DNA of 64,000 bases, from assembly GCA_903864935.1 (NCBI GenBank), contig CAIPHT010000006.1, positions 37,129 to 101,128 of the forward strand. Direction: 5' to 3'. The position numbers and the translations under genes were made by a program. Shown here in pieces: positions 4,830 to 62,508 of the stretch (position 1 is its first letter; every line of letters begins with the position of its first letter). The notes beneath the pieces are model-generated. The model worked only from the letters and a program-made list of their open reading frames with translations, ran no database searches and was not told where the DNA came from. Source of the stretch: Candidatus Vogelbacteria bacterium. GTDB lineage: Bacteria > Patescibacteriota > Minisyncoccia > Phycocordibacterales > XYD1-FULL-46-19.

Positions 4830-4931
4830 TTTTCACCTCCTTTCGGGTAGGTTGTTGTGGATCACTTGATCCGATTGTAGAGACCTTTCCTTCCTCAAGC
4901 TAACAGATTGCCTGTTATTGTCAAAAACTAA

Positions 4932-4971
4932 GGTAATAAACCATTCACGACCGTGAATGAATTGCTACCTT
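4932..4971 (+). repeat. 40-bp imperfect palindrome, family A copy 1 (ggtaataaaccattcacgaccgtgaatgaattgctacctt).
   Basis: Outer GGTAA..TTACC arms and inner CATTCACG-a-CCGTGAATG arms. Copies at 5557 and 30551. Confidence 0.6.
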
Positions 4972-4997: not shown

Positions 4998-5561
4998 ATG
5001 AAAAAGATTTCTAGAATAAATCACAAAGAAGTTATTTTAAGAACTATTGGCCTAGCTGGTTTACTTGCGGTCTCGGCTGTTGCCCCTGGGGTTTTGGTTC
5101 TTTATAAAAAACACAAGAAAATCCAGTATGAAAAACAGTCCAGAAATTATATAAACAGGGCAACGCAAAATCTAATCAAAGATGGTTTTGTCGAAATAAA
5201 AATTAACGAACAGGGAATAAAGTGCCTCCGTCTAACCAATCGTGGTCAAGAAGCCCTAAAGGAATACGCTTTGGCTGGGCTAGAAATCAAAAAACCTTGG
5301 CGTTGGGATCACAAATACCGGGTAATTATCTTCGATATTAAGGAATTTAAACGAGGAACGAGAGACAAACTAAGGCACTGGCTAGAACATCTTGGCTTTG
5401 TTCGCCTACAAAACAGTGTCTGGGTTTATCCCTATGATTGTCGAGAGGTCGTGATCTTACTTAAAGCTAATTTTAAAATAGGGAAAGAAGTCCTATATAT
5501 GACAGTTGATTCTATAGAAAACGATAAGTGGCTCAAGAAAGAATTTGGTCTGGCTAGGTAA
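4998..5561 (+). CDS. Short PaaX-like protein: N-terminal hydrophobic segment, a wHTH, and a Cas2/PaaX-middle-domain-like beta-alpha-beta core.
   Basis: 187 aa. The segment WRWDHKYRVIIFDIKEFKRGTRDKLRHWLEHLGFVRLQNSVWVYP matches the PaaX pattern W.GKW...L...GF.......P and the Cas2-like strand-helix-strand layout. TATAAT lies 7 nt upstream of the ATG with no SD. The gene is flanked by 40-bp palindromes at 4932-4971 and 5557-5596. Confidence 0.5.
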   Translation: MKKISRINHKEVILRTIGLAGLLAVSAVAPGVLVLYKKHKKIQYEKQSRNYINRATQNLIKDGFVEIKINEQGIKCLRLTNRGQEALKEYALAGLEIKKPWRWDHKYRVIIFDIKEFKRGTRDKLRHWLEHLGFVRLQNSVWVYPYDCREVVILLKANFKIGKEVLYMTVDSIENDKWLKKEFGLAR

Positions 5562-5596
5562 CAAACCGTTCACGGTCGTGAATGGTTTACTACCTT
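5557..5596 (+). repeat. 40-bp imperfect palindrome, family A copy 2. Overlaps the stop codon of the PaaX-like gene.
   Basis: ggtaacaaaccgttcacggtcgtgaatggtttactacctt. Confidence 0.6.
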
Positions 5597-5648
5597 TCTT
5601 TTTATTAAGAATTGTGATAATTTGCCAACAGAAAGGAGGTGATTAACA

Positions 5649-5984
5649 ATGTTTTTTAAAAGAAAAGCTGTTTCTGTACAACTTAAAGAGGGTGACGAGA
5701 TCCGGGTTCATAACAAGGGGATGTCTTGGGCCGTCTACTTTTATCGCTTTAACCGTCGCATAGGCGTTTGGGAGGAAATACGTTGTAGGAGCTCATTCCT
5801 TCGAATGGAAGTACCTCTCGGGGGGAGTAAGGAGGACCAAATCGCTGCAGCGAAAGGGGTGGTCGAGACCATCGCCGGATTCGCTGGTTATACCCTCTCC
5901 ACAGGGCCTAGCGAAAGGGTTGGGTGTGAAAGCGATGATCCTATTGTTCATGGTTGGGTAGGGGAACCAGTTTACAGGGTCTAA
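5649..5984 (+). CDS. Hypothetical small protein.
   Basis: 111 aa. Strong SD (gaaaggaggtga) 8 nt upstream. Followed by a rho-independent terminator at 5994-6030. Confidence 0.4.
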   Translation: MFFKRKAVSVQLKEGDEIRVHNKGMSWAVYFYRFNRRIGVWEEIRCRSSFLRMEVPLGGSKEDQIAAAKGVVETIAGFAGYTLSTGPSERVGCESDDPIVHGWVGEPVYRV

Positions 5985-12440: not shown

Positions 12441-13636
12441 TGTCCACAAAAAAACAACAACGGGTATTTGTCGGTATGAGTGGCGGAGTAGACAGCTCGG
12501 TCTCGGCCGCTTTGCTTAAGCAGGCCGGTTATGAAGTAATTGGCGTTTTTATCCGTGTCTGGGAACCGGCCGGTTTTGTTTGCAACTGGAAGGAAGAGCG
12601 ACGCTGGGCGAGACGAGTAGCGGCCCACTTAGACATCCCCTTACTTACCCTCGATTTAAGCAGGGAATATAAAAAGAGAGTTGTTGATTATTTTATCTCT
12701 GAATATAAAGCTGGGCGAACACCAAATCCTGACGTGATGTGTAATAAGCATATCAAATTTGGTGTTTTCTATGATTGGGCAATGGCTCACGGTGCCGATT
12801 TTGTGGCAACGGGACACTACTCTCGCGTCGAAAAAACGCGAGAATTATCAATGATCAATTCTCAATTTTCTCAAGCCCCGGTTTCCCGAGGTGAGTCCTC
12901 AAGTGCTGTGCCCCTCGAAGCCCTTGGGCGAAGTGGGGAGCCCGAGGTCTCACCTCAAGAGGGGCTTGTTCTAGAAATTGCCAAAGACTTAAACAAGGAC
13001 CAATCATACTTCCTCTGGAATCTTAAAACCGAGCAACTCTCTAAAATCCTTTTCCCAATTGGCCAATACACCAAACCTGAAGTGCGCAAACTCGCAACAA
13101 AATTCAAACTCCCCACCGCCCTTAAAAAAGACAGTCAGGGTTTATGTTTTGTTGGCAAAATTGATTTCAAAGATTTTTTAAAACGCGAGATTAAAGAAAA
13201 AGAGGGAAATGTCTTAAATGAAAGAGGGGAAGTAATAGGCAAGCATGAAGGGGCCACCTTTTTTACCATTGGCGAAAGACATGGCTTCGAAATTAGCACC
13301 AAATCACCAAGTGAATTGCCTTATTACATCATTGCCAAAGATATTAAGAAAAATACTCTCACTGTCTCAAACAAAAATAATCAAGGGCGTGCCTTGATTA
13401 CGGAAATAAAAATAGAAAAAACAAATTGGATTTCTGATCCCCAAAAGCTACCAACTAAAAGCTACCAACTAAAAGCTAGGGTCCGCTACCGTCAACCCCT
13501 CCAAAAATGCTCACTGTTAATAGTTGATGGTCAATCGTCAATAGTCACTTTCGACCAACCCCAAATCGCCGCCCCCGGCCAATCGCTTATCTTATATCAT
13601 AAGGATATCTGCCTCGGCGGGGGAATTATTGCCTAA
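12440..13636 (+). CDS. mnmA: tRNA 2-thiouridylase MnmA, with an in-frame insertion of about 23 residues encoded by a palindromic repeat element.
   Basis: PP-loop VFVGMSGGVDSSVSA, plus DQSYFLW and a C-terminal GQSLILYHKDICLGGGII. The extra segment ...RGESSSAVPLEALGRSGEPEVSPQEG... is encoded by nt 12888-12956, which is a diverged copy of the repeat at 35667-35733. Confidence 0.85.
   Translation: MSTKKQQRVFVGMSGGVDSSVSAALLKQAGYEVIGVFIRVWEPAGFVCNWKEERRWARRVAAHLDIPLLTLDLSREYKKRVVDYFISEYKAGRTPNPDVMCNKHIKFGVFYDWAMAHGADFVATGHYSRVEKTRELSMINSQFSQAPVSRGESSSAVPLEALGRSGEPEVSPQEGLVLEIAKDLNKDQSYFLWNLKTEQLSKILFPIGQYTKPEVRKLATKFKLPTALKKDSQGLCFVGKIDFKDFLKREIKEKEGNVLNERGEVIGKHEGATFFTIGERHGFEISTKSPSELPYYIIAKDIKKNTLTVSNKNNQGRALITEIKIEKTNWISDPQKLPTKSYQLKARVRYRQPLQKCSLLIVDGQSSIVTFDQPQIAAPGQSLILYHKDICLGGGIIA
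12888..12956 (+). repeat. About 69-bp palindromic element in its full-length form, inserted in frame in mnmA. Outer arms are GAGGTGAGTCCTC / GAGGTCTCACCTC; the core CCCCTCGAAGCC..CGAAGTGGGGAG is shared with 35667-35733.
   Basis: Direct sequence comparison with the intergenic copy at 35667-35733. Confidence 0.6.
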
Positions 13637-13677
13637 ATTTGACGAAAAGAAATTAAGAGAGTTTACTTAAATCAGAC

Positions 13678-13729
13678 AGCGAGGTGTTCTCGCGCAAAAG
13701 AAAAGGGCTCAAAAAGGGAGGAAAAACCC
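13678..13729 (+). promoter_or_regulatory. Conserved leader of small-protein cassette 1: hairpin aGCGAGgtgttCTCGCg, an A-rich tract, then the SD aagggagg.
   Basis: Near-identical to 14060-14112. Confidence 0.45.
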
Positions 13730-13966
13730 ATGAGCAACGATGATAACTTTACCCCGCCGTTCATCCCGTTCGGGGAAACAAATTCGGCTGACCCAAAAGG
13801 GGAGACCGATATCCTCAGACCCGGCAGTGTATTTGGCCCTCCGGGGTCAACAATCGGCCAGCTTCAAGCTGACAGGTTCCAGCGGATTCTCGGTGGAGAT
13901 CTTTCCCGAGAAGAATTAAAGGGAACGGACATCGAGAGATTCCGGAGGGCGAAGCATGGATTGTGA
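13730..13966 (+). CDS. Small hypothetical protein (cassette 1, 78 aa).
   Basis: SD aagggagg 9 nt upstream. Leader and terminator are shared with cassette 2. GC-rich island. Confidence 0.35.
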   Translation: MSNDDNFTPPFIPFGETNSADPKGETDILRPGSVFGPPGSTIGQLQADRFQRILGGDLSREELKGTDIERFRRAKHGL

Positions 13967-13983
13967 TGCTTTGTCTTTCCCGG

Positions 13984-14023
13984 CCCCCGACACGCACCAG
14001 CGTTGTCGGGGGCAGTTTTGTTT
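13984..14023 (+). terminator. Rho-independent terminator of cassette 1.
   Basis: CCCCCGACA-cgcaccagcg-TTGTCGGGGG followed by cagTTTTGTTTG. Confidence 0.6.
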
Positions 14024-14059
14024 GACTATTTTCATTACTAAGCGTTTAATCAATTTAGA

Positions 14060-14112
14060 AGCGAGGTGTTCTCGCGAAACAAAAAAGCTCAAACAAGGGA
14101 GGAAAACAACCC
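14060..14112 (+). promoter_or_regulatory. Conserved leader of small-protein cassette 2.
   Basis: Same hairpin AGCGAGGTGTTCTCGCG, A-rich tract and SD as 13678-13729. Confidence 0.45.
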
Positions 14113-14484
14113 ATGAGCAATAGTATGAAAGTAGTTACGTTCGGAAGGAGTATCCTTTCCGGCGTCATCTTTTGCGAGATAGGAGGAACAGTTGCTTTCG
14201 CCAAAAAAGCGGGCCCCCAACCTAAGGAGGGAGAAACCTGGGAGGTAATACCTCACCGGAACGGGGATGACGGAACTTACTTCCTCCTTGAACTCCTTAA
14301 GAAAATTGAGGAGGGCCCTAAGTCCCCCTCTGTCGAAGAGATCCTTGGGACCATCAACTTCGACGGCAATGGCCCCGGTCCCGAAGGGCCACCTGAACTG
14401 CCGGAGGACTTCGACGCCGGTGGCGTTATCGAACCGAGTGACCGCCCCTGGGATGGTGGAGTTCACCGACGCTTACCAATCTGA
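14113..14484 (+). CDS. Small hypothetical protein (cassette 2, 123 aa), with a hydrophobic N-terminus and a Gly/Pro/acidic-rich C-terminus.
   Basis: SD aagggagg upstream. Preferred over the overlapping minus-strand ORF 14089-14466 because of the SD and the paralogous cassette structure. Confidence 0.35.
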   Translation: MSNSMKVVTFGRSILSGVIFCEIGGTVAFAKKAGPQPKEGETWEVIPHRNGDDGTYFLLELLKKIEEGPKSPSVEEILGTINFDGNGPGPEGPPELPEDFDAGGVIEPSDRPWDGGVHRRLPI

Positions 14485-14502
14485 ACCCGGTTTCTTTCGT
14501 TG

Positions 14503-14541
14503 CCCCCGACACGCATCAGCGTTGTCGGGGGCAGTTTTGTT
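14503..14541 (+). terminator. Rho-independent terminator of cassette 2.
   Basis: CCCCCGACA-cgcatcagcg-TTGTCGGGGG followed by cagTTTTGTTT. Paralogous to 13984-14023. Confidence 0.6.
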
Positions 14542-14650
14542 TATTCAAAAAACCCTTATTTGTCGAAGTCCAACTTCGTAAACTATACAAAACTGTTAAT
14601 AAGTGACAAATATTTTTATTTTTGGCTATTTTTTGTTACTATATTAGACA

Positions 14651-16480
14651 ATGACATCTGAAGAAATCCGGCAAAAGTTCTTAGACTTTTTCGAACAAAG
14701 GGGGCACAAGATAGTGCCTTCGGCTTCGCTTATCCCTAGTACTTACGGCGACGAGGGGACTCTCTTCACCACGGCGGGGATGCAACCCATGATTCCTTAC
14801 TTACTAGGCAAAGCCCACCCCGAAGGTGTAAGAATTGCCGACGTGCAGAAATGTCTGCGCACAATTGACATCGATGACGTGGGTGACAACAGGCATAATA
14901 CTTTTTTCGAAATGTTGGGTAATTGGTCACTTGGTGATTATTTTAAAGCTGAGTCCATCCCTTGGAGTTTCGATTTTCTCACTAACAAAGAATATGGCTT
15001 GGGTCTCGACCCGGCTAGATTTTACGTTACCGTCTTTAAAGGTCAAGAGGCCACCGCCGAAGGCGGGGCAAGCATCCCGCGCGACGAAGAATCAATCAAA
15101 ATCTGGCAAGAAGTTTTTGCTAAATATAATATTTCTAATGAAGTGGCGGGCGAAGACGGAGTTGTTAAAGAAGGAGTAAGAATAATCCCACTTGGTGTTG
15201 ATGACAACTTCTGGATTGCCGGTAATTCTGGCCCCTGCGGTGGAGATACTGAGATTTTTTATGATGTCTACCCGAACGACAAAGTCGGGCGGGCCAACCC
15301 AGAAGGTAATTTTAATGACCTCGTAGACTCCTTCAGATTAATTGAGGTGTGGAATAACGTCTTCATGGAGTACAACAAGACCACAGAGGGCAAATATGAG
15401 CCTCTAGCGGCCAAAAATGTAGACACCGGCATGGGCTTAGAACGCACAACGGCCGTCGTTAATGGCAAGGACAATATTTTTGAGACAGATCTCTTTGCCC
15501 CTATTCTCAGCGAGATTAAACAACAGGTGGCCAATTTTGATGTTAAAGCTTCACGTATTGTTGCCGACCATGTGCGTACCGCTGTCTTTATGATTGCCGA
15601 CGGGGTGACTCCATCAAACACTGACCGAGGCTATATCTTAAGACGAATTATCCGTCGCGCGGTGCGTTATGCTGACAGTATGCAGGCTGACAATGAGGTC
15701 TTAAGCAAAGTGGCCTATATTGTGATTGAAAAATATAAAAAAGTTTATCCCGAACTTGAGCAAAACCGTGAGCAAATTTTTACTGAGCTAAATAAAGAGG
15801 AAGAAAAATTTAGAAAGACACTCGAGCAAGGCCTTAAAGAATTCGAGCGAGGTCAGGACCCCTTCGATCTCTACCAAACTTTTGGCTTCCCGATTGAATT
15901 AACCGAGGAATTGGCTCAAGAAAGAGGGATAACAATAGACAGAAAGAAGTTTGATGAGCAAATGATTGAGCATCAAGCTATTTCTAAGGCTGGCTCTGAG
16001 CAGAAGTTCAAAGGCGGGCTTGCCGAGCACTCCGAGCAGACGATTAAATATCATACCGCTACCCACCTCTTACACTCCGCCTTGCGACAAGTCTTGGGGA
16101 AAGAAGTTGGACAGAAGGGGAGCAACATCACCGACGAGCGTCTGCGCTTCGACTTCGCTTGGCCAAATAAATTGACCGATGCACAAAAGATTGAGGTAGA
16201 AAAAATTGTGAACGATAGCATCTCCGCCAATTTGCCCGTCTGTCGCATTGAGCTCTCTAAAGAAGAGGCCGAGAAAACCGGCGCCCTGCACTTCTTCGGT
16301 GAGAAATATGGCGACACTGTCTCGGTTTATTATATTGGTGATGGTATCGACGATGCCGTATCTAAAGAATTCTGCGGTGGCCCTCATGTCAAGAATACCG
16401 GCGCCCTCGGCCACTTCAAAATCACTAAGGAAGAGGCCTCCTCGGCCGGAGTCAGACGCATTAAAGCCATTTTGGAATAA
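14651..16480 (+). CDS. alaS: Alanyl-tRNA synthetase, compact 609-aa form that lacks the C-terminal C-Ala domain.
   Basis: Class-II AlaRS N-terminal motifs (FLDFFEQRGH, GNWSLGDYFK), the editing-domain zinc site HTATHLLH, and CGGPHV. Confidence 0.85.
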   Translation: MTSEEIRQKFLDFFEQRGHKIVPSASLIPSTYGDEGTLFTTAGMQPMIPYLLGKAHPEGVRIADVQKCLRTIDIDDVGDNRHNTFFEMLGNWSLGDYFKAESIPWSFDFLTNKEYGLGLDPARFYVTVFKGQEATAEGGASIPRDEESIKIWQEVFAKYNISNEVAGEDGVVKEGVRIIPLGVDDNFWIAGNSGPCGGDTEIFYDVYPNDKVGRANPEGNFNDLVDSFRLIEVWNNVFMEYNKTTEGKYEPLAAKNVDTGMGLERTTAVVNGKDNIFETDLFAPILSEIKQQVANFDVKASRIVADHVRTAVFMIADGVTPSNTDRGYILRRIIRRAVRYADSMQADNEVLSKVAYIVIEKYKKVYPELEQNREQIFTELNKEEEKFRKTLEQGLKEFERGQDPFDLYQTFGFPIELTEELAQERGITIDRKKFDEQMIEHQAISKAGSEQKFKGGLAEHSEQTIKYHTATHLLHSALRQVLGKEVGQKGSNITDERLRFDFAWPNKLTDAQKIEVEKIVNDSISANLPVCRIELSKEEAEKTGALHFFGEKYGDTVSVYYIGDGIDDAVSKEFCGGPHVKNTGALGHFKITKEEASSAGVRRIKAILE

Positions 16481-29456: not shown

Positions 29457-29534
29457 AAAACTTTAATTTATTCAAAAGGAAAACCCACCGTGTGTCAGAC
29501 GGAGGGTTCTCCGAATTCACACGGCGGGTGGGGA

Positions 29535-30359: not shown

Positions 30360-30550
30360 CCGCGGGGAATGCTCAGGGCCGATTTCTACGCAGGGTAGAC
30401 CTAAGTCACCTTCGCCTGCAACAGAGCAAGCTACGGCGAACCAAGGAGGGGGTTGCCCTAATCAGCTGATTTCAAGAGTGCCTTACTGAATTTCAGACAC
30501 TCACTTTCTGCTTCTAATTATACTCTCATTTTACTGCCCTGTCAAGCCAT

Positions 30551-30590
30551 GGTAATCATCCATTCACGACCGTGAACGATTTGTTACCTT
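30551..30590 (+). repeat. 40-bp imperfect palindrome, third copy of family A (ggtaatcatccattcacgaccgtgaacgatttgttacctt).
   Basis: Same architecture as 4932-4971 and 5557-5596. Confidence 0.6.
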
Positions 30591-30616
30591 GTTCGAAACC
30601 TTTCCCCCAACAAAAG

Positions 30617-30649
30617 AGCCCGCCATACGGAGGCGAGCTCCATTGGCGG
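30617..30649 (-). terminator. Terminator hairpin E1, a paralogue of 30946-30978.
   Basis: cccgcca..ggaggcgagctcca..ttggcgg, followed on the minus strand by CTTTTGTTGG. Confidence 0.5.
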
Positions 30650-30677
30650 ACTAGCGGTTTGGCAGTGTCCTTTCCGT

Positions 30678-30794
30678 TCAACAAAAGGCCTTAACCAGAA
30701 AGTACAGCACCATCCCTCCGACGACGAGCACCATCAACCACTGTGGCGGACCAATCGGAACAGGGTCGTCATCCCAATATCTTTTCTCACTCAT
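30678..30794 (-). CDS. Possible 38-aa single-TM micro-protein.
   Basis: SD aggaga 6 nt upstream. Hydrophobic core LMVLVVGGMVLYFLV. The terminator hairpin E1 at 30617-30649 lies downstream on the minus strand. Confidence 0.25.
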   Translation of the reverse strand: MSEKRYWDDDPVPIGPPQWLMVLVVGGMVLYFLVKAFC

Positions 30795-30887
30795 GGCGAA
30801 TCTCCTCTAAGTTGCCATCGTTCTGCTTTCTATTATACACCTTTCTATTCTCTCTGTCAAGCCCAACTCTTGTCTAAAAAACCTTAG

Positions 30888-30910
30888 TGTGCGAGATTGG
30901 ATATCGCACA
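30888..30910 (+). repeat. REP hairpin copy (gtgtgcgaGATTGGATAtcgcacac, 9-bp stem).
   Basis: Identical to the RAYT-flanking REPs. Confidence 0.7.
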
Positions 30911-30945
30911 CTTTAGTAAAATGTAGATAAAAATATAAACAAAAG

Positions 30946-30978
30946 ATCCCGCCAACAGAGACGAACTCCATTGGCGGG
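30946..30978 (-). terminator. Terminator hairpin E2.
   Basis: cccgccaacagagacgaactccattggcggg matches E1 at 28 of 32 positions. T-rich on the minus strand. Confidence 0.5.
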
Positions 30979-30995
30979 GGAATAAGCTGATTATC

Positions 30996-31211
30996 TTATC
31001 TCCTGGATCTCTCCCACTCCTCTCTGGTAAAGCCAAAAGGTATGTAGGCCGGAGCAAGAGATGAGGAAGTGCTTCTTGAGGGCCCGTGGGGTAAAATCAG
31101 ACGGGCACACCTCTCAGCGTCACCCTGTGGTTGGCGGGGTGTCTCCACCCTGATCTTGACGGATCCATCGTCTGGAACACAGCAATTATATCCACCGTTT
31201 AGGTCAGCCAT
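30996..31211 (-). CDS. Small hypothetical protein (71 aa, contains a CC pair).
   Basis: SD agggag 9 nt upstream on the minus strand. Terminator E2 downstream. Confidence 0.35.
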   Translation of the reverse strand: MADLNGGYNCCVPDDGSVKIRVETPRQPQGDAERCARLILPHGPSRSTSSSLAPAYIPFGFTREEWERSRR

Positions 31212-31327
31212 GATAAAATTCTCCCTAGGGTTAGATGTTCACACTCTGTCTGTACGATAGCATTTTTTATATTATTGTCAACCCGACCCTTGTTCATCCT
31301 TAAAAACATAGTATAATCAACATCATT

Positions 31328-32449
31328 ATGCCCAAAGATTATTACAAAACTCTAGGTGTGGAGAAGGGGGCCTCGAAGGAGGAGCTCAAGAAAGCCTTCC
31401 ATAAACTCGCCCACAAACATCATCCTGACAAACAGGGTGGCGATGAAGCGAAGTTCAAAGAAATTAACGAGGCCTATCAAATTCTCTCAGACGACAATAA
31501 GCGCGCGCAATATGACCGCTTCGGCGAAGCGGGAACTAATGGCGGATTTGGTGGAGGACAACCAGGGGGCGGGCAAGGTGGAGGCTTCGGCGGATTTGAT
31601 TTCTCGGGCTTTCAAAATGCTAATGGCGGACAAGGTTTTGAATTTGATCTCGGTGATATCTTCGGCGAAATGTTTGGTGGCGGCGGCGGACGCGGTCAGG
31701 TACGACGTGGACGCGATATCTCTGTCGATATTCAGATTAGCTTCAAAGAGGCGGTCTTTGGTGTAGAGCGCAATATTTTAATCAATAAAATTAGCGAATG
31801 TGATACTTGTCATGGCTCTGGTGCGGAGGCTGGCTCACAAATGAAAAAATGTGCCACTTGTGGCGGCAAGGGTAAGGTCAACGAAACCCGTCGTTCCATC
31901 TTCGGCACCTTCCAATCTTCCCACGAATGCCCCGACTGTCATGGCAAAGGCGAAGTCCCAGACAAGAAATGCAAGACCTGCCGTGGCGAAGGTGTCTATA
32001 ACAAGCAAACAAATATTAAAGTTGCTGTTCCCGCTGGCATGGATGCCGGCGAGATGATACGTCTCACTGGACAAGGCGAAGCGGTTGCCGGTGGACAAGC
32101 CGGAGATCTTTATGTGAAAGTTCATATCGAGAAAGATAATATTTGGAAGCGAGTGGGTAATGACCTCACAACCGAAATTAAAATTAAATTAACAGATGCG
32201 CTCTTAGGTTCTGACTACAATCTCGAAACACTCGATGGCCCATTAACGCTTAAAGTCCCGGCCGGCCTCACCTATGGCGAAATATTGCGTGTGAAGGCGA
32301 AGGGGGTACCGGCACGTTCCGCCTCCGCCAGAGGCTTCGGCGAGACAAAGCGAGGAGACCTACTTATCCGCGTCACTTTTCCAACACCAGCCAAACTCTC
32401 CAAGACGGCTCGCAAAGCTATTGAGGATCTTCAGTCTGAGGGCCTCTAG
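31328..32449 (+). CDS. dnaJ: Molecular chaperone DnaJ.
   Basis: J-domain with HPD (KKAFHKLAHKHHPDK), a G/F-rich linker, four CxxCxGxG zinc-finger repeats, and a C-terminal domain. Confidence 0.9.
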   Translation: MPKDYYKTLGVEKGASKEELKKAFHKLAHKHHPDKQGGDEAKFKEINEAYQILSDDNKRAQYDRFGEAGTNGGFGGGQPGGGQGGGFGGFDFSGFQNANGGQGFEFDLGDIFGEMFGGGGGRGQVRRGRDISVDIQISFKEAVFGVERNILINKISECDTCHGSGAEAGSQMKKCATCGGKGKVNETRRSIFGTFQSSHECPDCHGKGEVPDKKCKTCRGEGVYNKQTNIKVAVPAGMDAGEMIRLTGQGEAVAGGQAGDLYVKVHIEKDNIWKRVGNDLTTEIKIKLTDALLGSDYNLETLDGPLTLKVPAGLTYGEILRVKAKGVPARSASARGFGETKRGDLLIRVTFPTPAKLSKTARKAIEDLQSEGL

Positions 32450-32680: not shown

Positions 32681-32693
32681 CCTTAGCCACACC

Positions 32694-32762
32694 ACCCGCC
32701 GGCGCCAAACGGAGACCCTCCGTCTGGCACACGGCGGGTTTTCTGTTTTTTCAAAATTACCC
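32694..32762 (+). terminator. Double-hairpin, probably bidirectional, terminator. Member D2 of a three-copy family.
   Basis: cccgccggcgcc...cggagaccctccg...ggcacacggcggg followed by TTTTCTGTTTTTT. Related copies at 29470-29530 and, inverted, at 49503-49552. Confidence 0.55.
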
Positions 32763-33795: not shown

Positions 33796-35130
33796 ATGGA
33801 AAGCTGGATCAAAACTAGGAACAAAATTATTGGTTGGAATTATCGAAATATTCTCAAACCAATTCTCTTCAAATTCGATCCTGAAGATATCCACGACTTA
33901 TTTATTAAAGTAGGGAATCTCCTTGGCCAAACATCCGCCACTCGATATTTAACAAGAGTTCTTTTTGATTATGAGAACCCAGTGCTTGAACAAGAAATTT
34001 TGGGCATCAAATTTAAAAATCCAGTTGGCCTCTCGGCTGGCTTCGACAAGAATGCAAGACTAACAAAAATCTTACCAGCTGTTGGCTTTGGTTTTGCTGA
34101 AGCGGGTTCAGTCACTGGCCGACCCTGCAAGGGCAATGAGGGGCGACATTTATGGCGCTTGCCTAAGTCTAAGAGTTTGATTGTTTATTATGGTTTGACG
34201 AATGATGGGGCAGAGGCCATCGCCAGGCGATTGTTAGAAGTCCAACTTCAAGTGAGCCCGAAGTTGGACTTCGAACAAGAAGCCAAGGGTCCGGAAGTTG
34301 GACTTCGGGCTCACTTGAAGTCCAACTTCCTACACAAGTCCAACTTCGTTCTGGGCATCAGTCTCGCCAAAACAAACGACCAAAAAACCATCACGACCGA
34401 AGCGGGGACTGCTGATTATATTAAAGCCTATGAAGCCTTCCTCAAGACCGACGTTGGCGACTACTTCACCATCAACATCAGTTGCCCCAACACCTTTGGT
34501 GGCGAACCTTTTGTTGAACCAGAACGTCTTGATTTGTTACTCTCCGCTTTTGCTAAAATAAGAGACGAAGAATCTGCCCGAGGACTACCCTCGGTCAAAG
34601 CGAAAGAAGTCCAACTTCAAGTGAGCCCGAAGTTGGACTTCGTGAGCGTCAACCGTCCACTTTTTATAAAACTCCCACCAGACCTAAGTGAAGAAAAACT
34701 AGACGCCATTATTGAACTGGTCAAGAAATATAAAATCAATGGCTTCGTCTCGACAAATCTCACCAAGGACCGAAACAATCCACTAATTAAAGATAAAATA
34801 AAGGATCCTTTGCCCACAGACAAAGGGGGATTGTCAGGTAAGATTGTTGAGGAGCTCGCAACCAAGCAAATTGAATATATTTATAAAAAAATAAAAGATC
34901 TCCCTCAGACCGAGAGACCTATCATCATTGGTTGCGGAGGCATCTTCACAGCCCAAGACGCCTACAACAAAATCAAAGCTGGCGCCTCACTCCTCCAACT
35001 CATCACCGGGATGATTTTCGAAGGCCCTCAAGTCATTAGCGAGATCAATCAAGGCCTGGTCACCCTGCTCCAAAAAGATGGGTATAAAAATATAAGTGAG
35101 GCGGTAGGGAAGTCTACTTGCCAACCATAA
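33796..35130 (+). CDS. pyrD: Dihydroorotate dehydrogenase (class 2-like), carrying three in-frame palindromic-element insertions that add about 100 aa.
   Basis: GFDKNA, NISCPNT, GGLSG, IIGCGGI...DA..KI.AGASLLQL.TG. It is 444 aa, against about 340-360 for typical DHODH. The extra peptides EVQLQVSPKLDF (twice) and PEVGLRAHLKSNF are encoded by the repeats at 34237-34273, 34292-34330 and 34606-34642. Confidence 0.8.
   Translation: MESWIKTRNKIIGWNYRNILKPILFKFDPEDIHDLFIKVGNLLGQTSATRYLTRVLFDYENPVLEQEILGIKFKNPVGLSAGFDKNARLTKILPAVGFGFAEAGSVTGRPCKGNEGRHLWRLPKSKSLIVYYGLTNDGAEAIARRLLEVQLQVSPKLDFEQEAKGPEVGLRAHLKSNFLHKSNFVLGISLAKTNDQKTITTEAGTADYIKAYEAFLKTDVGDYFTINISCPNTFGGEPFVEPERLDLLLSAFAKIRDEESARGLPSVKAKEVQLQVSPKLDFVSVNRPLFIKLPPDLSEEKLDAIIELVKKYKINGFVSTNLTKDRNNPLIKDKIKDPLPTDKGGLSGKIVEELATKQIEYIYKKIKDLPQTERPIIIGCGGIFTAQDAYNKIKAGASLLQLITGMIFEGPQVISEINQGLVTLLQKDGYKNISEAVGKSTCQP
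34237..34273 (+). repeat. 37-bp palindromic element, short form (GAAGTCCAACTTC-aagtgagcccg-AAGTTGGACTTC-g), in frame in pyrD.
   Basis: Perfect 13-bp inverted arms. Translated as EVQLQVSPKLDF. Confidence 0.75.
34292..34348 (+). repeat. Inverse-orientation copy of the 37-bp element plus an adjacent half-element, in frame in pyrD.
   Basis: cggaagttggacttcgggctcacttgaagtccaacttcc, then aagtccaacttcg. Translated as PEVGLRAHLKSNF..HKSNF. Confidence 0.7.
34606..34642 (+). repeat. 37-bp palindromic element, second direct copy, in frame in pyrD.
   Basis: Identical to 34237-34273. Confidence 0.75.
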
Positions 35131-35666: not shown

Positions 35667-35733
35667 GAAGTCCAACTTCAAGTGCCTGCCCCTCGAAGCC
35701 TTGGCGAAGTGGGGAGCCCGAAGTTGGACTTCG
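35667..35733 (+). repeat. Full-length (about 67 bp) palindromic element: GAAGTCCAACTTC-aagtg-cctgCCCCTCGAAGCCttggCGAAGTGGGGag-cccg-AAGTTGGACTTC-g.
   Basis: The 37-bp form in pyrD equals this element minus the inner roughly 30 bp. Intergenic, between the 35155 gene and the convergent tyrS. Confidence 0.7.
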
Positions 35734-36974: not shown

Positions 36975-37922
36975 CTAGCGATTTTTAAGGAATTTAACAA
37001 CAACCCGAGCCGCCTGCTCTAAGTGACTTTCGGACAACTGATCGACAGTATCGCCAGCACTATGATAAATCTCGTAAAGTTTCTTGAGATCAGCGCAAGC
37101 CACGAGAATCTTCTTCCGAAATTTCTTAATATTTTTTATCGGGAAACATTCGCTAACAAATTCTTCGTCGGTACTAAGTTTAGTCTCGCCATTACCCACG
37201 CAATCAATAACTAAAATTCTCTCGGCTTCCTTGAAGAGGCGCGGATGGCGCTTTTCTAAAATTCTGAAACCTCGGCCCCAATATTGTGGTCGGTCATAAG
37301 AAATTTCTTCATTACCGCTAAAAATAAACAAGCAATTTTCTAATAACTCCTGATGGTTAATAATTACTCCCATCATAGTAGACACACCCGAGGCATTGTC
37401 GGTCGCCCCGGTCTCGAGACAATCATAATGAGCAAAAACTAAATACTGGGGATTATTCTTATTCCCAACCAAGATATTCTTAGACAAGAAGCCTGTTCGC
37501 TCGACGTCAATCGAGCCCTCAATCTCTTCGCCTGACATTAATTGAACCAAATCTTTTTTATTTATCGCCAAAGAAGGGAAGTGATAATGTTGGGCCAAGG
37601 AGAGGTCGTCGGACTTAGGATTAAAATTAATATTCGCTCCACCCTCATAATCAAGCAGAGAATTTATGACCTTCGATTTCCTAGTAATCTTACCGTCAAC
37701 AAAAGAGGTCGGACGACAATCAATTTCTTTATCATCTACCACAAGACAGGTCTTAATATTCTTAGGATATGAGGTGTGGAATTTCTCAACAATAAAAGGT
37801 ATCCCTTGTTCCTTCAGATAAGCTTCGAGAAACTTCGCCGTCTTTTGTTCGTTCTTACCCAGTCGCGGAGAAAACTTTATTAATTCCTTAACAAAGTGGA
37901 GATAGAAGTCTTTGTTTGACAT
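36975..37922 (-). CDS. M28-family zinc peptidase-like protein.
   Basis: FAHYD...DNASGV matches the M28 metal-binding motifs (H.D ... D-N-A-S-G). 315 aa. Confidence 0.55.
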   Translation of the reverse strand: MSNKDFYLHFVKELIKFSPRLGKNEQKTAKFLEAYLKEQGIPFIVEKFHTSYPKNIKTCLVVDDKEIDCRPTSFVDGKITRKSKVINSLLDYEGGANINFNPKSDDLSLAQHYHFPSLAINKKDLVQLMSGEEIEGSIDVERTGFLSKNILVGNKNNPQYLVFAHYDCLETGATDNASGVSTMMGVIINHQELLENCLFIFSGNEEISYDRPQYWGRGFRILEKRHPRLFKEAERILVIDCVGNGETKLSTDEEFVSECFPIKNIKKFRKKILVACADLKKLYEIYHSAGDTVDQLSESHLEQAARVVVKFLKNR

Positions 37923-60478: not shown

Positions 60479-60485
60479 TAAAAAA

Positions 60486-60520
60486 AGAAACCCTGGGTTA
60501 AATCCTGGGGTTTCTTTTTT
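60486..60520 (+). terminator. Rho-independent terminator.
   Basis: GAAACCCTGGG-ttaaat-CCTGGGGTTTC followed by TTTTTT. Confidence 0.6.
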
Positions 60521-60593
60521 AGATTTTTATGTTATAAATATAATTAGATGAAACATGTGCCCCGTTGCTCAAACCAAGGGAGGGTTTAAACCC

Positions 60594-60773
60594 ATGAACG
60601 AGCATAACCACGTATCAGAAGACGAAATGGCTGCCCTGTGTGGCGCCACCGTCGAAGACGCAGAGGCCGAAGCCATCTGCGACAGAATCAAGGAATGCCT
60701 TGATTGTCGTCGTGCCTGGATGGCTTATGTCAGCACGCACGAATGCACAGGCACCTGCCAGTGCGCCGAATGA
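60594..60773 (+). CDS. Cys-rich 59-aa protein. Reads as either a zf-HC2-like anti-sigma zinc-finger or a RiPP-precursor-like peptide.
   Basis: SD gggaggg 8 nt before the ATG at 60594. The C-terminus ECLDCRRAWMAYVSTHECTGTCQCAE has 7 Cys and one H-x3-C-x2-C-like arrangement. GC-rich island. Confidence 0.35.
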   Translation: MNEHNHVSEDEMAALCGATVEDAEAEAICDRIKECLDCRRAWMAYVSTHECTGTCQCAE

Positions 60774-61311
60774 ACCCAACCCGCCCGTCTGTTAAGCCAC
60801 CGGCAAGCCCGTCGTCTTGATGAGACGGGCTTTGCTATTACTTTAAATTATAAATAAGCGATTTTTAAGGCGAAAAGTGAAAAAAATCGAAAAATGACCA
60901 AATTTGGCTTTTTGAGGATCTTTAAGAAAATAGCGATATTAACACTTTTTGACGGCCGTCAGGAAATGTTAATAAGGGTTCGGGGTCAGAAATTTAGCGA
61001 TAAGTTGACAGAGAAGTGAAGAAAATATTTTTGGAAAATAATTTTTAGACGGCAGGGTAGGGGGTTTTAATATCGCAAAATGCATTGTCCGACGTCAAGG
61101 CACACATCGGACAATGCCCTTCGATTTTGCAACATTAAGCCTACGGCTTATGTCGCAAAATCTATGTTGTGCGACATATACCATAGTTATCCACAGCTAG
61201 CTAAAAGCCCTCCCCCTTTACAAGATTGACAATTTGTTTCACATTTGATAATCTATCTTTCAGACAAAGTGGTGAGCAACTAGTGCTTACCCAAACAAAA
61301 AGGAGAAGTCC

Positions 61312-61527
61312 ATGCCCCACGTACCAGACCCGAACCCCATCATAGGGAAAGCTCATGAAGATGCCCTCTCCCCCGCCCTGGAGGAAGAGGGTGGGCAAGC
61401 CGCATTCAGGCCGGACCCGACACCTTTCCACCGGGCAGTCCTCAAAAGCATGCAGAGGCAGGAAAGAAACCTGCCCCCGAGCCTGAGGCGGGTAAACGGC
61501 CACATGGTGGCCAGCTACAGCGACTAG
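61312..61527 (+). CDS. Small hypothetical protein (71 aa, Pro-rich).
   Basis: Strong SD aaaggagaag 7 nt upstream. Terminator at 61553-61596. Preferred over the overlapping minus-strand ORF 61201-61671. Confidence 0.3.
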   Translation: MPHVPDPNPIIGKAHEDALSPALEEEGGQAAFRPDPTPFHRAVLKSMQRQERNLPPSLRRVNGHMVASYSD

Positions 61528-61552
61528 CCCCCGGGAGGGGCAAAAGAGATTC

Positions 61553-61596
61553 CCCCGGCGCGACTGCAACAAGCAGAGCGCCGGGGCTTTTTTATT
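61553..61596 (+). terminator. Rho-independent terminator.
   Basis: CCCCGGCGC-gactgcaacaagcaga-GCGCCGGGG followed by CTTTTTTATT. Confidence 0.65.
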
Positions 61597-61713
61597 ATTT
61601 TTTATAATTTGACTGAGTACTATTTTAATAGTATAAATAAACACAGAAAGTTCGCCGGTGCCGTGTGGCACTGACTGTCAAAAAAGTTGCAAACAGAACA
61701 GAGGAGAGAGGTC

Positions 61714-62262
61714 ATGAAGAAACTGGTTTTTGTCTTTCTTGCGCTCGTAATGTTTATTCCCCAGGCCACAGTTCAAGCCGACTCACGGCCCTTCGTGCCA
61801 TACTTATGGGCAAGGGAGATGTCTATTCCCTACTTCGCGTTCGGCGTCCCCGACAAAGAAGCCGGGAAGTTTGTGGAGGGGGTAATGTTAAATCCACCCA
61901 CCATCAGCCTGGAGAAAGGCGAGGTGGGGAGGGTCTTCTTCCTGTACAAGGACAAGTTAACGGGAGAAGAAAGTCATTGTTTCTTCCGTCTCAGCGACCT
62001 AACGGGAGACCCACGGGAGACCGAGTGGTGGCAGAAGACCATCTATCGCTTCCCGGCCGACAATCTTCGCAAGATGGTCGATGAGGCAGCGAGTGTAAAG
62101 ACTTGTCCCGAAGGAGAAAAGGTCACCGATCTTATCCTCGCCGACATGGTAGCCCGTGGCTATGCCACCAAAGACGAGATTGGCAAGGAACGCCTACCTC
62201 TAACTCGCACCCGTGAGATTATGCGCAATTACACAGGGGAAATAGAGATCGCCATCTTCTGA
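61714..62262 (+). CDS. Secreted hypothetical protein (182 aa).
   Basis: SD gaggagagagg upstream. Signal peptide MKKLVFVFLALVMFIPQATVQA. A bidirectional terminator hairpin follows at about 62283-62325. Confidence 0.45.
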   Translation: MKKLVFVFLALVMFIPQATVQADSRPFVPYLWAREMSIPYFAFGVPDKEAGKFVEGVMLNPPTISLEKGEVGRVFFLYKDKLTGEESHCFFRLSDLTGDPRETEWWQKTIYRFPADNLRKMVDEAASVKTCPEGEKVTDLILADMVARGYATKDEIGKERLPLTRTREIMRNYTGEIEIAIF

Positions 62263-62316
62263 CCAACCCCCCCCAGACAGTAAAAGCCCCGTCTCGCCTA
62301 GTGCGAGGCCGGGGCT

Positions 62317-62508
62317 TTAGTTTTGAACCATATCGGCCCCCTCGATCTGCACCGGCATTTTGTCGCCCTCAAGGCGTGATAAGCGCCCCAAGCCAAAGGC
62401 CAAGACAGCCACCAGGATAACAAGCAAGGCCACGAAGAGCTCTTTCTCATAATCTCTTAGCTTCCCCAGTTTGCCCTTGATTTTTTCCCCTATTTGATTT
62501 ATACTCAT
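62317..62508 (-). CDS. Possible small membrane protein (63 aa).
   Basis: TM helix LFVALLVILVAVLAFGL. No clear SD. Confidence 0.2.
   Translation of the reverse strand: MSINQIGEKIKGKLGKLRDYEKELFVALLVILVAVLAFGLGRLSRLEGDKMPVQIEGADMVQN

Follow-up and report, generated by a model that had tools for sequence, protein, structure and literature searches.

How do two adjacent small genes come to share nearly identical leaders and terminators when their coding sequences have nothing in common? The question is raised by a locus on contig CAIPHT010000006.1 of a Candidatus Vogelbacteria bacterium (assembly GCA_903864935.1), which is considered here within a window of 64,000 nucleotides (positions 37,129 to 101,128 of the forward strand); the window is the whole stretch of DNA that was analysed, and all positions refer to it unless a relative is named. 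A sequence-only reading of this stretch had described two tandem units at positions 13678-14541, each consisting of a conserved leader, a different small open reading frame (ORF; 78 and 123 aa), and a near-identical terminator. The two adjacent units with their unrelated ORFs were confirmed at exactly these positions. The more general picture drawn from them, namely that constant expression signals surround variable payloads, also holds; conservation stops at codon 3 of each ORF and resumes ~7-10 nt past the stop codons.

The locus is a species-specific insertion of 912 bp in the chromosome of a member of Candidatus Paceibacterota (candidate phyla radiation, CPR), an affiliation indicated by the alanyl-tRNA synthetase encoded immediately downstream. 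Probably, if not securely, it holds two autonomous single-gene expression units built from one copied composite module. Each unit would comprise a sigma-70-like promoter, a 5' untranslated region (UTR) of ~55 nt with two hairpins and an A-rich linker, a small orphan ORF, and a strong intrinsic terminator. The shared flanks would stem from the duplication of regulatory modules or from recombination between them, and not from the divergence of a duplicated gene.

An insertion of two repeat periods between mnmA and alaS

The two units are arranged head to tail on the plus strand (unit 1, 13639-14023; unit 2, 14022-14542) and together make up an insertion (13637-14548) that begins directly after the stop codon of mnmA (13634-13636). 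In four relatives (L127, L128, L132, and L133), whose AlaS proteins are 75-82% identical to that encoded in the window, mnmA is followed directly by alaS, with spacers of 37-138 nt, and the gene order leuS, sigma-like gene, DUF8128, yceG, mnmA, alaS is kept in all four. Positions 13637-14548 are counted as the insertion because the mnmA-alaS spacer of L127 matches only positions 14549-14650 of the window (81% over 102 nt).

Other relatives carry different DNA at this site. A DUF218 gene precedes alaS in two other relatives, and L134 (AlaS 73% identical) has an orphan ORF of its own between mnmA and alaS (64 aa; L134 4725-4919), which is also rich in Gly, Pro, Asp, and Glu (53%) and has a terminator-like hairpin 3' of the ORF. 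The public gene call at that locus is 87 aa long, which is produced by read-through of the TGA codon of the 64-aa ORF, and no similarity of the 64-aa ORF to either ORF1 or ORF2 was detectable. Since the site upstream of alaS is either empty or occupied by DUF218, another orphan, or the island, this position varies within a block of genes that is conserved in other respects.

The edges of the island fall on junctions between terminator and promoter (marked by a slash), which read TAAA/TTTGACG on the left, GTTTTGTTTGACT in the middle, and GTTTTGTTTA/TTC on the right. The island starts at the TTTGAC of promoter 1 and stops with the GTTTTGTTT of terminator 2, so that it consists of exactly two periods of a promoter-leader-ORF-terminator repeat. 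Its G+C content, which the sequence-only reading had put at about 55%, is 52.9% for positions 13678-14541 (53.6% in ORF1 and 54.6% in ORF2) compared to 45.3% for the entire window. Five independent assemblies, obtained from different samples, agree over the locus with 100% identity, and another one deviates only at its contig end outside the island; the identity across independent assemblies rules out an assembly artefact.

Conserved promoter-like sites, leaders, and terminators

The promoter-like sites of both units conform to the consensus TTGACN-17-TTTAMT. The hexamers and their 17-nt spacing are kept across a spacer whose sequence is not conserved (6/17 identical), which argues for a function as promoter. 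The 17-mer AGCGAGGTGTTCTCGCG begins ~10 nt (unit 1) and ~9 nt (unit 2) from the -10-like hexamer and is found at 13678 and 14060 but nowhere else in the window (0.08 occurrences expected by chance, with up to three mismatches allowed). It is part of a leader that is 83% identical between the units over 83 nt (13658-13737 vs 14041-14120; blastn E 1e-15). In both leaders, the region from the predicted start to codon 7 forms the same two hairpins in the minimum-free-energy and centroid structures, and a manual alignment of the leaders contains about three substitutions and three indels, every one of them in unpaired positions.

Hairpin 1 has a predicted energy of -7.5 kcal/mol when folded alone, begins 3-5 nt downstream of the probable transcription start, and is followed by an A-rich linker in both leaders. 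The sequence-only reading had considered that the leader hairpin might act as a regulatory RNA element, which is possible. The Rfam 15 models gave no gathering-level match in the window, and the best permissive matches reached 11-19 bits against thresholds of 34-233. According to another interpretation, a dimeric repressor binds the 15-bp palindrome GCGAG-N5-CTCGC as a DNA operator at the transcription start, and the two genes form a small regulon. The palindrome is indeed a perfect inverted repeat that would span about +3 to +20 from the predicted start, and its identity in both units, which includes the loop, would be expected of a site bound by a protein. However, there is no regulator gene next to the island, the window contains only two such sites, and both the A-rich tract and hairpin 2 are RNA-level features. 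Moreover, two stand-alone genes elsewhere in the window (61312 and 61714) show, by eye, hairpins of different sequence at the equivalent position of their 5' UTRs, which favours a structural RNA. An operator is an unlikely explanation.

Hairpin 2 coincides with the ribosome-binding site. The block common to both units reads GCTCAAA..AAGGGAGGAAAA..CCCATGAGCAA, and can also be given as GCTCAAA..AAGGGAGG..CCCATGAGCAA. In the predicted fold, GCUCA pairs with UGAGC (the UG of the start codon together with the codon after it) and the Shine-Dalgarno GGG with the CCC before the AUG, so that the hairpin encloses both the Shine-Dalgarno sequence and the AUG and has the conserved ATGAGC as its 3' arm. 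The conservation of CCCATGAGCAA and of an N-terminal Met-Ser-Asn in otherwise unrelated proteins is explained by their being part of this hairpin. Only 1 of 16 control initiation regions is as stable as hairpin 2 of unit 1.

A third copy of the ribosome-binding module is located 46 kb away in front of a Cys-rich ORF (Table 1), bringing the occurrences of the pattern in the window to three, against zero expected. In this copy, the 3' arm GAGC has moved one codon further downstream with the fold kept; hairpin 1 and the terminator are not common to it. In degree of structure, each copy exceeds 14-15 of the 16 initiation regions of the window that served as controls, which is suggestive, not decisive, evidence for the predicted hairpin 2.

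In the terminators of both units, a 13-bp G+C-rich stem that has a single bulged U and is capped by a tetraloop precedes a U-tract, and the two are 92% identical over 50 nt (13974-14023 vs 14493-14542). Their core GCCCCCGACACGCAYCAGCGTTGTCGGGGGC is present in exactly two copies in the window (13983 and 14502), with 0.00 copies expected by chance, and the conserved 3' block (TCTTTC...GCCCCCGACACGCAYCAGCGTTGTCGGGGGCAGTTTTGTTT) begins 7 nt past the stop codon in unit 1 and 8 nt past it in unit 2. There is no T-run after the hairpins on the minus strand, which fixes the orientation of the units. Terminator 1, promoter 2, and the leader of unit 2 form a contiguous composite of ~145 nt, in which the U-tract of terminator 1 overlaps the -35 element of promoter 2.

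Table 1. Positions of the elements of the twin units and of related modules in the window.
Feature	Position	Strand	Remarks
Promoter-like site, unit 1	13639-13667	+	TTGACG, 17 nt, TTTACT; read from sequence
Leader hairpin 1, unit 1	13679-13693	+	GCGAG-GTGTT-CTCGC; minimum-free-energy and centroid folds
Hairpin 2 / ribosome-binding module, unit 1	13707-13735	+	GCUCA...GGG(AGG)...CCC-A-UGAGC, -9.1 kcal/mol
ORF1	13730-13966	+	78 aa; Gly/Pro/acidic-rich orphan; sole match is itself; no family
Intrinsic terminator, unit 1	13974-14023	+	-27.2 kcal/mol, z -4.0
Promoter-like site, unit 2	14022-14050	+	TTGACT, 17 nt, TTTAAT; -35 overlaps U-tract of terminator 1
Leader hairpin 1, unit 2	14061-14075	+	Identical to hairpin 1 of unit 1
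Hairpin 2 / ribosome-binding module, unit 2	14087-14118	+	Predicted fold, -8.5 kcal/mol
ORF2	14113-14484	+	123 aa; orphan; hydrophobic N-terminus, then acidic Gly/Pro-rich remainder; no credible homologue
Intrinsic terminator, unit 2	14493-14542	+	-28.6 kcal/mol, z -6.9
Ribosome-binding module, third copy	60567-60597	+	GCTCAAACCAAGGGAGGGTTTAAACCCATGA; before 59-aa Cys-rich ORF (60594-60773); nhmmer E 9e-7
Second array, three tandem units	30360-31330	-	71 aa (31211-30996), 38 aa (30794-30678), 274 aa (from 30359)

Unrelated coding regions and the origin of the repeats

The coding regions between these flanks show no relationship to each other. The two proteins are unrelated (BLASTP E 0.89), and Smith-Waterman comparisons of the coding regions, both of the direct DNA strands and in all nine frame pairs, gave scores no better than those of shuffled sequences. 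A marginal score of the reverse-complement DNA comparison (p 0.026) failed multiple testing and was rejected. Nothing indicates that the two ORFs are halves of a single disrupted gene, an outcome that the sequence-only reading had named as a possible refutation.

Such repeats arise most commonly by tandem duplication. Plain duplication of one small gene, after which one coding region was replaced or scrambled while purifying selection or gene conversion kept the ends, would account for two adjacent units in the same orientation with flanks that are 83-92% identical, and no special cassette function would be involved. By contrast, it leaves unexplained why no residual coding similarity persists beside such flanks, why the ORFs differ in length by 45 codons, and why the ribosome-binding module also precedes a third unrelated ORF at a distance of 46 kb. 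Highly similar flanks around unlike coding regions are the reverse of what is expected from divergence after duplication and point to a copying of modules; a duplicated gene is a conceivable but doubtful origin.

Homologues of the two proteins, for which a search had been recommended, were not found. Neither ORF has a homologue among 5.8 billion clustered proteins, and an exhaustive HMMER search of 1.84 billion representatives yielded no credible homologue of ORF2. Matches of ORF2 to two giant repeat proteins were not accepted as homology, as their scores are sums of weak repeats. There was no match of either ORF to Pfam, PHROGs, PADLOC, or NCBIfam, no similarity to the rest of the window, and, in the case of ORF1, no match in the PDB. 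The PDB search aligned residues 73-121 of ORF2 with the substrate-binding domain of DnaK (E 0.008), but this match is weak and the HSP70 family of Pfam remained silent; likewise, residues 78-106 of ORF2 (LGTINFDGNGPGPEGPPELPEDFDAGGVI; window 14344-14430) matched the substrate-binding signature (residues 453-483) of the DnaK encoded in the window (pairwise BLASTP E 0.004). Both similarities are probably due to chance or composition. Single-sequence AlphaFold models (pLDDT 61 and 37) were too poor for a fold search.

In view of the missing homologues, the units might also be genes for non-coding RNAs of ~350 and 485 nt with functional conserved ends and untranslated ORFs. The weak codon score of ORF1, the low confidence of the AlphaFold models, and the restriction of conservation to the ends of the transcripts agree with such an interpretation. 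However, both units have a strong Shine-Dalgarno sequence (GGGAGG) 8-10 nt ahead of a conserved AUG, and both frames remain open exactly up to the terminators, in ORF1 to 16 nt before the stem (p = 0.033) and in ORF2 to 17 nt (p = 0.005; both by shuffling), for which the joint chance is ~2e-4. Moreover, the codon score of ORF2 (0.247) is the best of its six frames and lies within the range of genes (0.30 +/- 0.12), and there is no Rfam match. The spacing of GGGAGG, the open frames, and the codon scores favour translation of both ORFs, and an origin as non-coding RNA genes is improbable. The Gly and Pro contents of the presumptive proteins are twice those of the proteome, and the hydropathy profile of ORF2 shows an N-terminus, ending in AFA-KK, that looks like a signal peptide.

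Search for further copies and counter-evidence

The sequence-only reading had proposed a search of the genome for more copies of the leader and terminator modules. Profiles (nhmmer) of the leader, the ribosome-binding module, and the terminator were run against the window and the loci of six relatives, where the partial copy at 60567 was the only addition. Scans of IMG/VR with hairpin 1, the terminator, and the ribosome-binding module returned one chance match within coding DNA and nothing else, and the whole island had no match among the phages of INPHARED and the plasmids of PLSDB. In a genome collection that evidently does not contain the species of the window, the combination of hairpin 1 and Shine-Dalgarno sequence matched 118 times, never in Paceibacterota; these matches mostly represent a conserved coding stretch of actinobacteria (..REVFSQAP..) or chance occurrences in high-GC DNA and were discarded. 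A metagenome scan with the terminator stem retrieved two contigs of 61% GC, which have the stem alone in common with the island and are unrelated.

Several observations weigh against two autonomous units built from a copied module. The 64 kb of the window and ~75 kb from six relatives contain no further full copy of the leader or the terminator, and neither do the public collections scanned; the sequence-only reading had named such a result as one half of a refutation. The module "family" rests on two full copies, one partial copy, and one analogous locus. The -10 hexamers of both promoter-like sites (TTTACT and TTTAAT) carry T at position 2, where A is nearly invariant, because of which a consensus promoter scan skipped both sites, and canonical TTGACA-17-TATAAT sites are present elsewhere in the window; with imperfect -10 hexamers, the predicted promoter strength and transcription start are uncertain. 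The stem of hairpin 1 comprises 5 bp only, the z-scores of the whole leaders are modest (-1.4 and -2.5), and two identical copies offer no covariation that could tell an RNA hairpin from a DNA palindrome. Finally, the codon score of ORF1 (0.052) is the best of six frames but falls below the 5th percentile of real gene segments.

Other re-used regulatory modules in the window

A second array of tandem units is located on the minus strand between dnaJ and a 274-aa gene, the last unit of the array (Table 1). Each of its three units has a promoter and a terminator, and the 38-aa ORF contains a transmembrane stretch. The units of the 71-aa and 38-aa ORFs share a terminator (30609-30649 vs 30938-30977; 88% over 41 nt), which can also be viewed as two adjacent blocks of 17 nt (94%) and 23 nt (87%), and the units of the 38-aa and 274-aa ORFs share a perfect TTGACA-17-TATAAT promoter together with the first transcribed bases (30506-30523 vs 30821-30838; 83%). 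Self-comparison of the window revealed several more families of short hairpin repeats. The recurrence of such modules across the window suggests that this genome habitually re-uses short regulatory hairpin modules, with the twin units as the clearest instance.

Additional repeats were observed at several places. The island at 60480-62320, which includes the third copy of the ribosome-binding module, comprises three stand-alone small genes, encoding a 59-aa Cys-rich, a 71-aa Pro/acidic-rich (61312-61527), and a 182-aa secreted-looking protein (61714-62262). None of them has a Pfam family, and every one has a promoter of its own; strong terminators stand after the second and third genes, and a weaker terminator-like hairpin after the 59-aa ORF. 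By eye, their leaders likewise consist of a 5' UTR hairpin and an A-rich linker, with a different sequence. Two convergent terminators at separate loci (29479-29531 and 32692-32743) are inverted copies of each other with 81% identity over 53 nt (CCCGCCG..GGAG.ACCCTCCGTCTG.CACACGG.GGG) and thus provide a further example of terminator re-use, and dispersed intergenic hairpin repeats at 4923-4970, 5556-5603, and 30551-30591 (GGTAACAAAYCGTTCACGGTCGTGAATGG..TACC) are 85-90% identical.

A palindromic repeat (GAAGTCCAACTTC / GAAGTTGGACTTC) occurs within mnmA (12899-12948), at 35678-35724, and also at 34231-34349 and 34605-34642 inside the ORF at 33796-35130. The copy within mnmA lies at an in-frame insert (..SQAPVSRGESSS..EPEVSPQEG..), which the window has in common with L128 and L133 and which L127 and L132 lack; the mnmA of L134 has another insert in its place. 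Such an insert recalls the palindromic elements of Rickettsia, which insert in frame into genes. The interior of mnmA also contains a perfect tandem duplication of 14 nt (AAAAGCTACCAACT twice; 13443-13470), and several independent metagenome contigs of the same population begin within ~100 nt of it (window 13393-13497), which suggests strain variation or a break point of the assembly.

Genomic neighbourhood

The neighbours of the island that have Pfam records are cellular genes, including an ABC transporter, leuS, yceG, mnmA, alaS, a methyltransferase, and a NUDIX gene. This survey extended from position 512 to ~17.5 kb of the window, i.e., over ~13 kb upstream and ~3.5 kb downstream of the island, with three neighbours lacking a Pfam match and the interval from leuS to mnmA covered by synteny.

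The spacer between mnmA and alaS has features of its own. Its ancestral part holds a small hairpin, which reads CGAAGTCCAACTTCG in the window (14556-14580) and L127 (5905-5930) and has the variant CGATATCCAATCTCG in L134 (4650-4672); L128 has a GTGCGAGATTGGATATCGCAC hairpin (5895-5925). Similar hairpins are scattered in the window (26103, 26639, 30888, 29443, and 40259), often between a terminator and the next promoter. The alaS gene seems to be leaderless or nearly so, since a -10-like box (TATATT, TAATAT, TAAGAT, or TAGAAT) ends 3-8 nt before the ATG in four genomes (14642-14653 in the window, 5989-6003 in L127, 5985-6003 in L128, and 4982-5003 in L134), with a distance of 3 nt in the window; a Shine-Dalgarno sequence is absent in all four.

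Two of the three analogies offered by the sequence-only reading, integron-like arrays and the tips of polymorphic toxin/immunity systems, do not agree with this setting, whereas the third (phage morons) is consistent with the evidence, as discussed below. The attC sites of integrons have a length of 57-141 nt and contain R''/L''/L'/R' boxes with a GTTRRRY core at the cassette boundary, and most integron cassettes are promoterless. The twin units conform to the general picture, because similar imperfect hairpins follow unrelated ORFs in tandem. However, there is no intI or attI, and no integrase or recombinase family was found among the Pfam-annotated genes of the surveyed interval; the hairpins (31 nt) are too short, end in U-tails, and have no GTTRRRY core at the cassette boundary, and each unit carries its own promoter-like site. 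As for orphan toxin or immunity tips, there is no large, full-length toxin gene nearby and no shared coding segment, the conserved parts are non-coding save for three codons, and neither PADLOC nor Pfam contained a matching toxin or defence family. Both origins are highly implausible.

Possible function of the twin units

If the twin units are indeed autonomous, the module would provide each payload with its own start and stop of transcription, which would allow parallel expression of both genes independently of mnmA and alaS. The terminators would at the same time shield the alaS promoter immediately downstream from read-through. Hairpin 1, owing to its 5'-proximal position, would most likely guard the mRNA from decay that depends on the 5' end, and hairpin 2, which is predicted to cover the Shine-Dalgarno sequence and the AUG, would most likely tune or gate the initiation of translation.

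Small CPR genomes are rich in lineage-specific orphan genes for which neither origin nor expression has been explained, and the locus between mnmA and alaS offers two such genes in a re-used, self-contained expression scaffold between two essential and syntenic genes. If such modules are widespread and active in recombination, they would provide a concrete way to acquire new small genes and try them out while the neighbouring operons stay undisturbed, promoters, UTRs, and terminators of natural origin for use in organisms now without genetic tools, and a link between the modular shuffling of phages and the evolution of bacterial chromosomes. If they are not widespread, the locus is a tidy case of duplicated regulatory DNA flanking two orphan genes.

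Comparison with known systems

Several known systems combine conserved flanks with dissimilar genes. In the upstream homology box (UHB) families of the cp32 elements of Borrelia, a conserved promoter and 5' flank extend into the first codons of dissimilar genes, a pattern that is attributed to recombination among the loci. The UHB loci, which are carried by multi-copy prophage plasmids, code for lipoproteins whose signal peptides are conserved, and they are not known to have a conserved terminator module. The twin units resemble these loci in that they also keep the promoter and 5' flank into the first codons before unlike genes.

The leaders invite a comparison with those of ompA, papA, and aprE, which appear among the references listed in PMC3997798 as 5'-terminal stem-loops that stabilize mRNA. 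In the twin units, a small hairpin likewise lies a few nucleotides from the predicted 5' end, with a single-stranded A-rich tract and then a strong ribosome-binding site downstream of it. They differ in that the stem is only 5 bp long and the position of the transcription start was deduced from the -10 hexamers.

Morons are transcribed independently between a promoter and a terminator of their own, have a G+C content unlike that of their surroundings, and represent "more DNA" in comparison to related genomes ("The moron comes of age", PMC3594210). The twin units match this description in their predicted signals, their elevated G+C content, and their nature as an addition of 912 bp, which bears out the moron analogy of the sequence-only reading. 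They differ from morons in that they are not located in a phage or prophage, share regulatory sequences between the two units, and have no homologues.

The promoter-early stem-loops (PeSLs) of T4-type phages are composites of ~100 bp that consist of a terminator stem-loop and a sigma-70-like promoter and end in a Shine-Dalgarno sequence and a start codon (PMC2839356, PMC4122927). They lie between the orphan genes of hyperplastic regions, with ~50 copies per phage genome, and have been proposed, and partly shown, to drive the insertion, deletion, and replacement of ORFs via recombination and mini-circles; they have been termed "mobile regulatory cassettes" (Arbiol et al. 2010, PMC2839356; Comeau et al. 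2014, PMC4122927). The composite at 13974-14120 has the same anatomy, with a stem-loop (-27 kcal/mol), a U-tract that overlaps TTGACT-17-TTTAAT (with an imperfect -10), a leader, GGGAGG, and ATG, and the adjacent genes are orphans absent from four relatives, in a tandem order of module, ORF, module, ORF. By contrast, the composite is located in a CPR chromosome between housekeeping genes and not in a hyperplastic region of a phage, its genes have no PHROG match and are absent from the phage collections, and its copies number two full and one partial in 64 kb, with none in the ~75 kb of the six relatives. Moreover, the leader of the twin units has two extra predicted hairpins, and the 3' ends are canonical intrinsic terminators with U-tracts.

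The resemblance raises the question of whether the composites are cassettes that are competent for recombination like PeSLs and serve as homology blocks for the insertion, deletion, or swapping of payloads, possibly via small circles, with the island representing a two-period piece of an array. Besides the shared anatomy and the orphan genes that vary among relatives, such an origin is consistent with island borders at junctions of terminator and promoter that delimit exactly two periods, with the variability of the site upstream of alaS, and with the similar re-use of regulatory modules at a second locus (30360-31330). Arguing against it are the two full copies, compared to the ~50 PeSLs of a phage genome, the identity of all copies in the population with no variant carrying another payload, the missing donor among the phage records of IMG/VR and INPHARED, and the length of the homology blocks (50-83 nt), which is short for RecA-type exchange. 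An origin from active cassettes of this kind is possible but not likely.

Even more tentative is the extension of this analogy, according to which CPR chromosomes would use PeSL-like modules as portable "expression sockets" that capture, stack, and exchange orphan and possibly newly born small genes. If true, a mechanism known to date from T4-like phages alone would extend to cellular genomes with extremely reduced gene sets, the sites in question would be permissive spots beside essential genes, and short regulatory blocks would mediate the exchange.

The twin units are a well-delimited and unusually clear-cut pair of natural "expression cassettes" in a CPR genome. Among the systems described so far, PeSLs are the closest to the twin units, which probably owe their present form to the copying of a composite module. 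By analogy, each unit would work like a moron or a PeSL unit, i.e., as a small gene that brings its own start and stop of transcription, without membership in either of these phage families.

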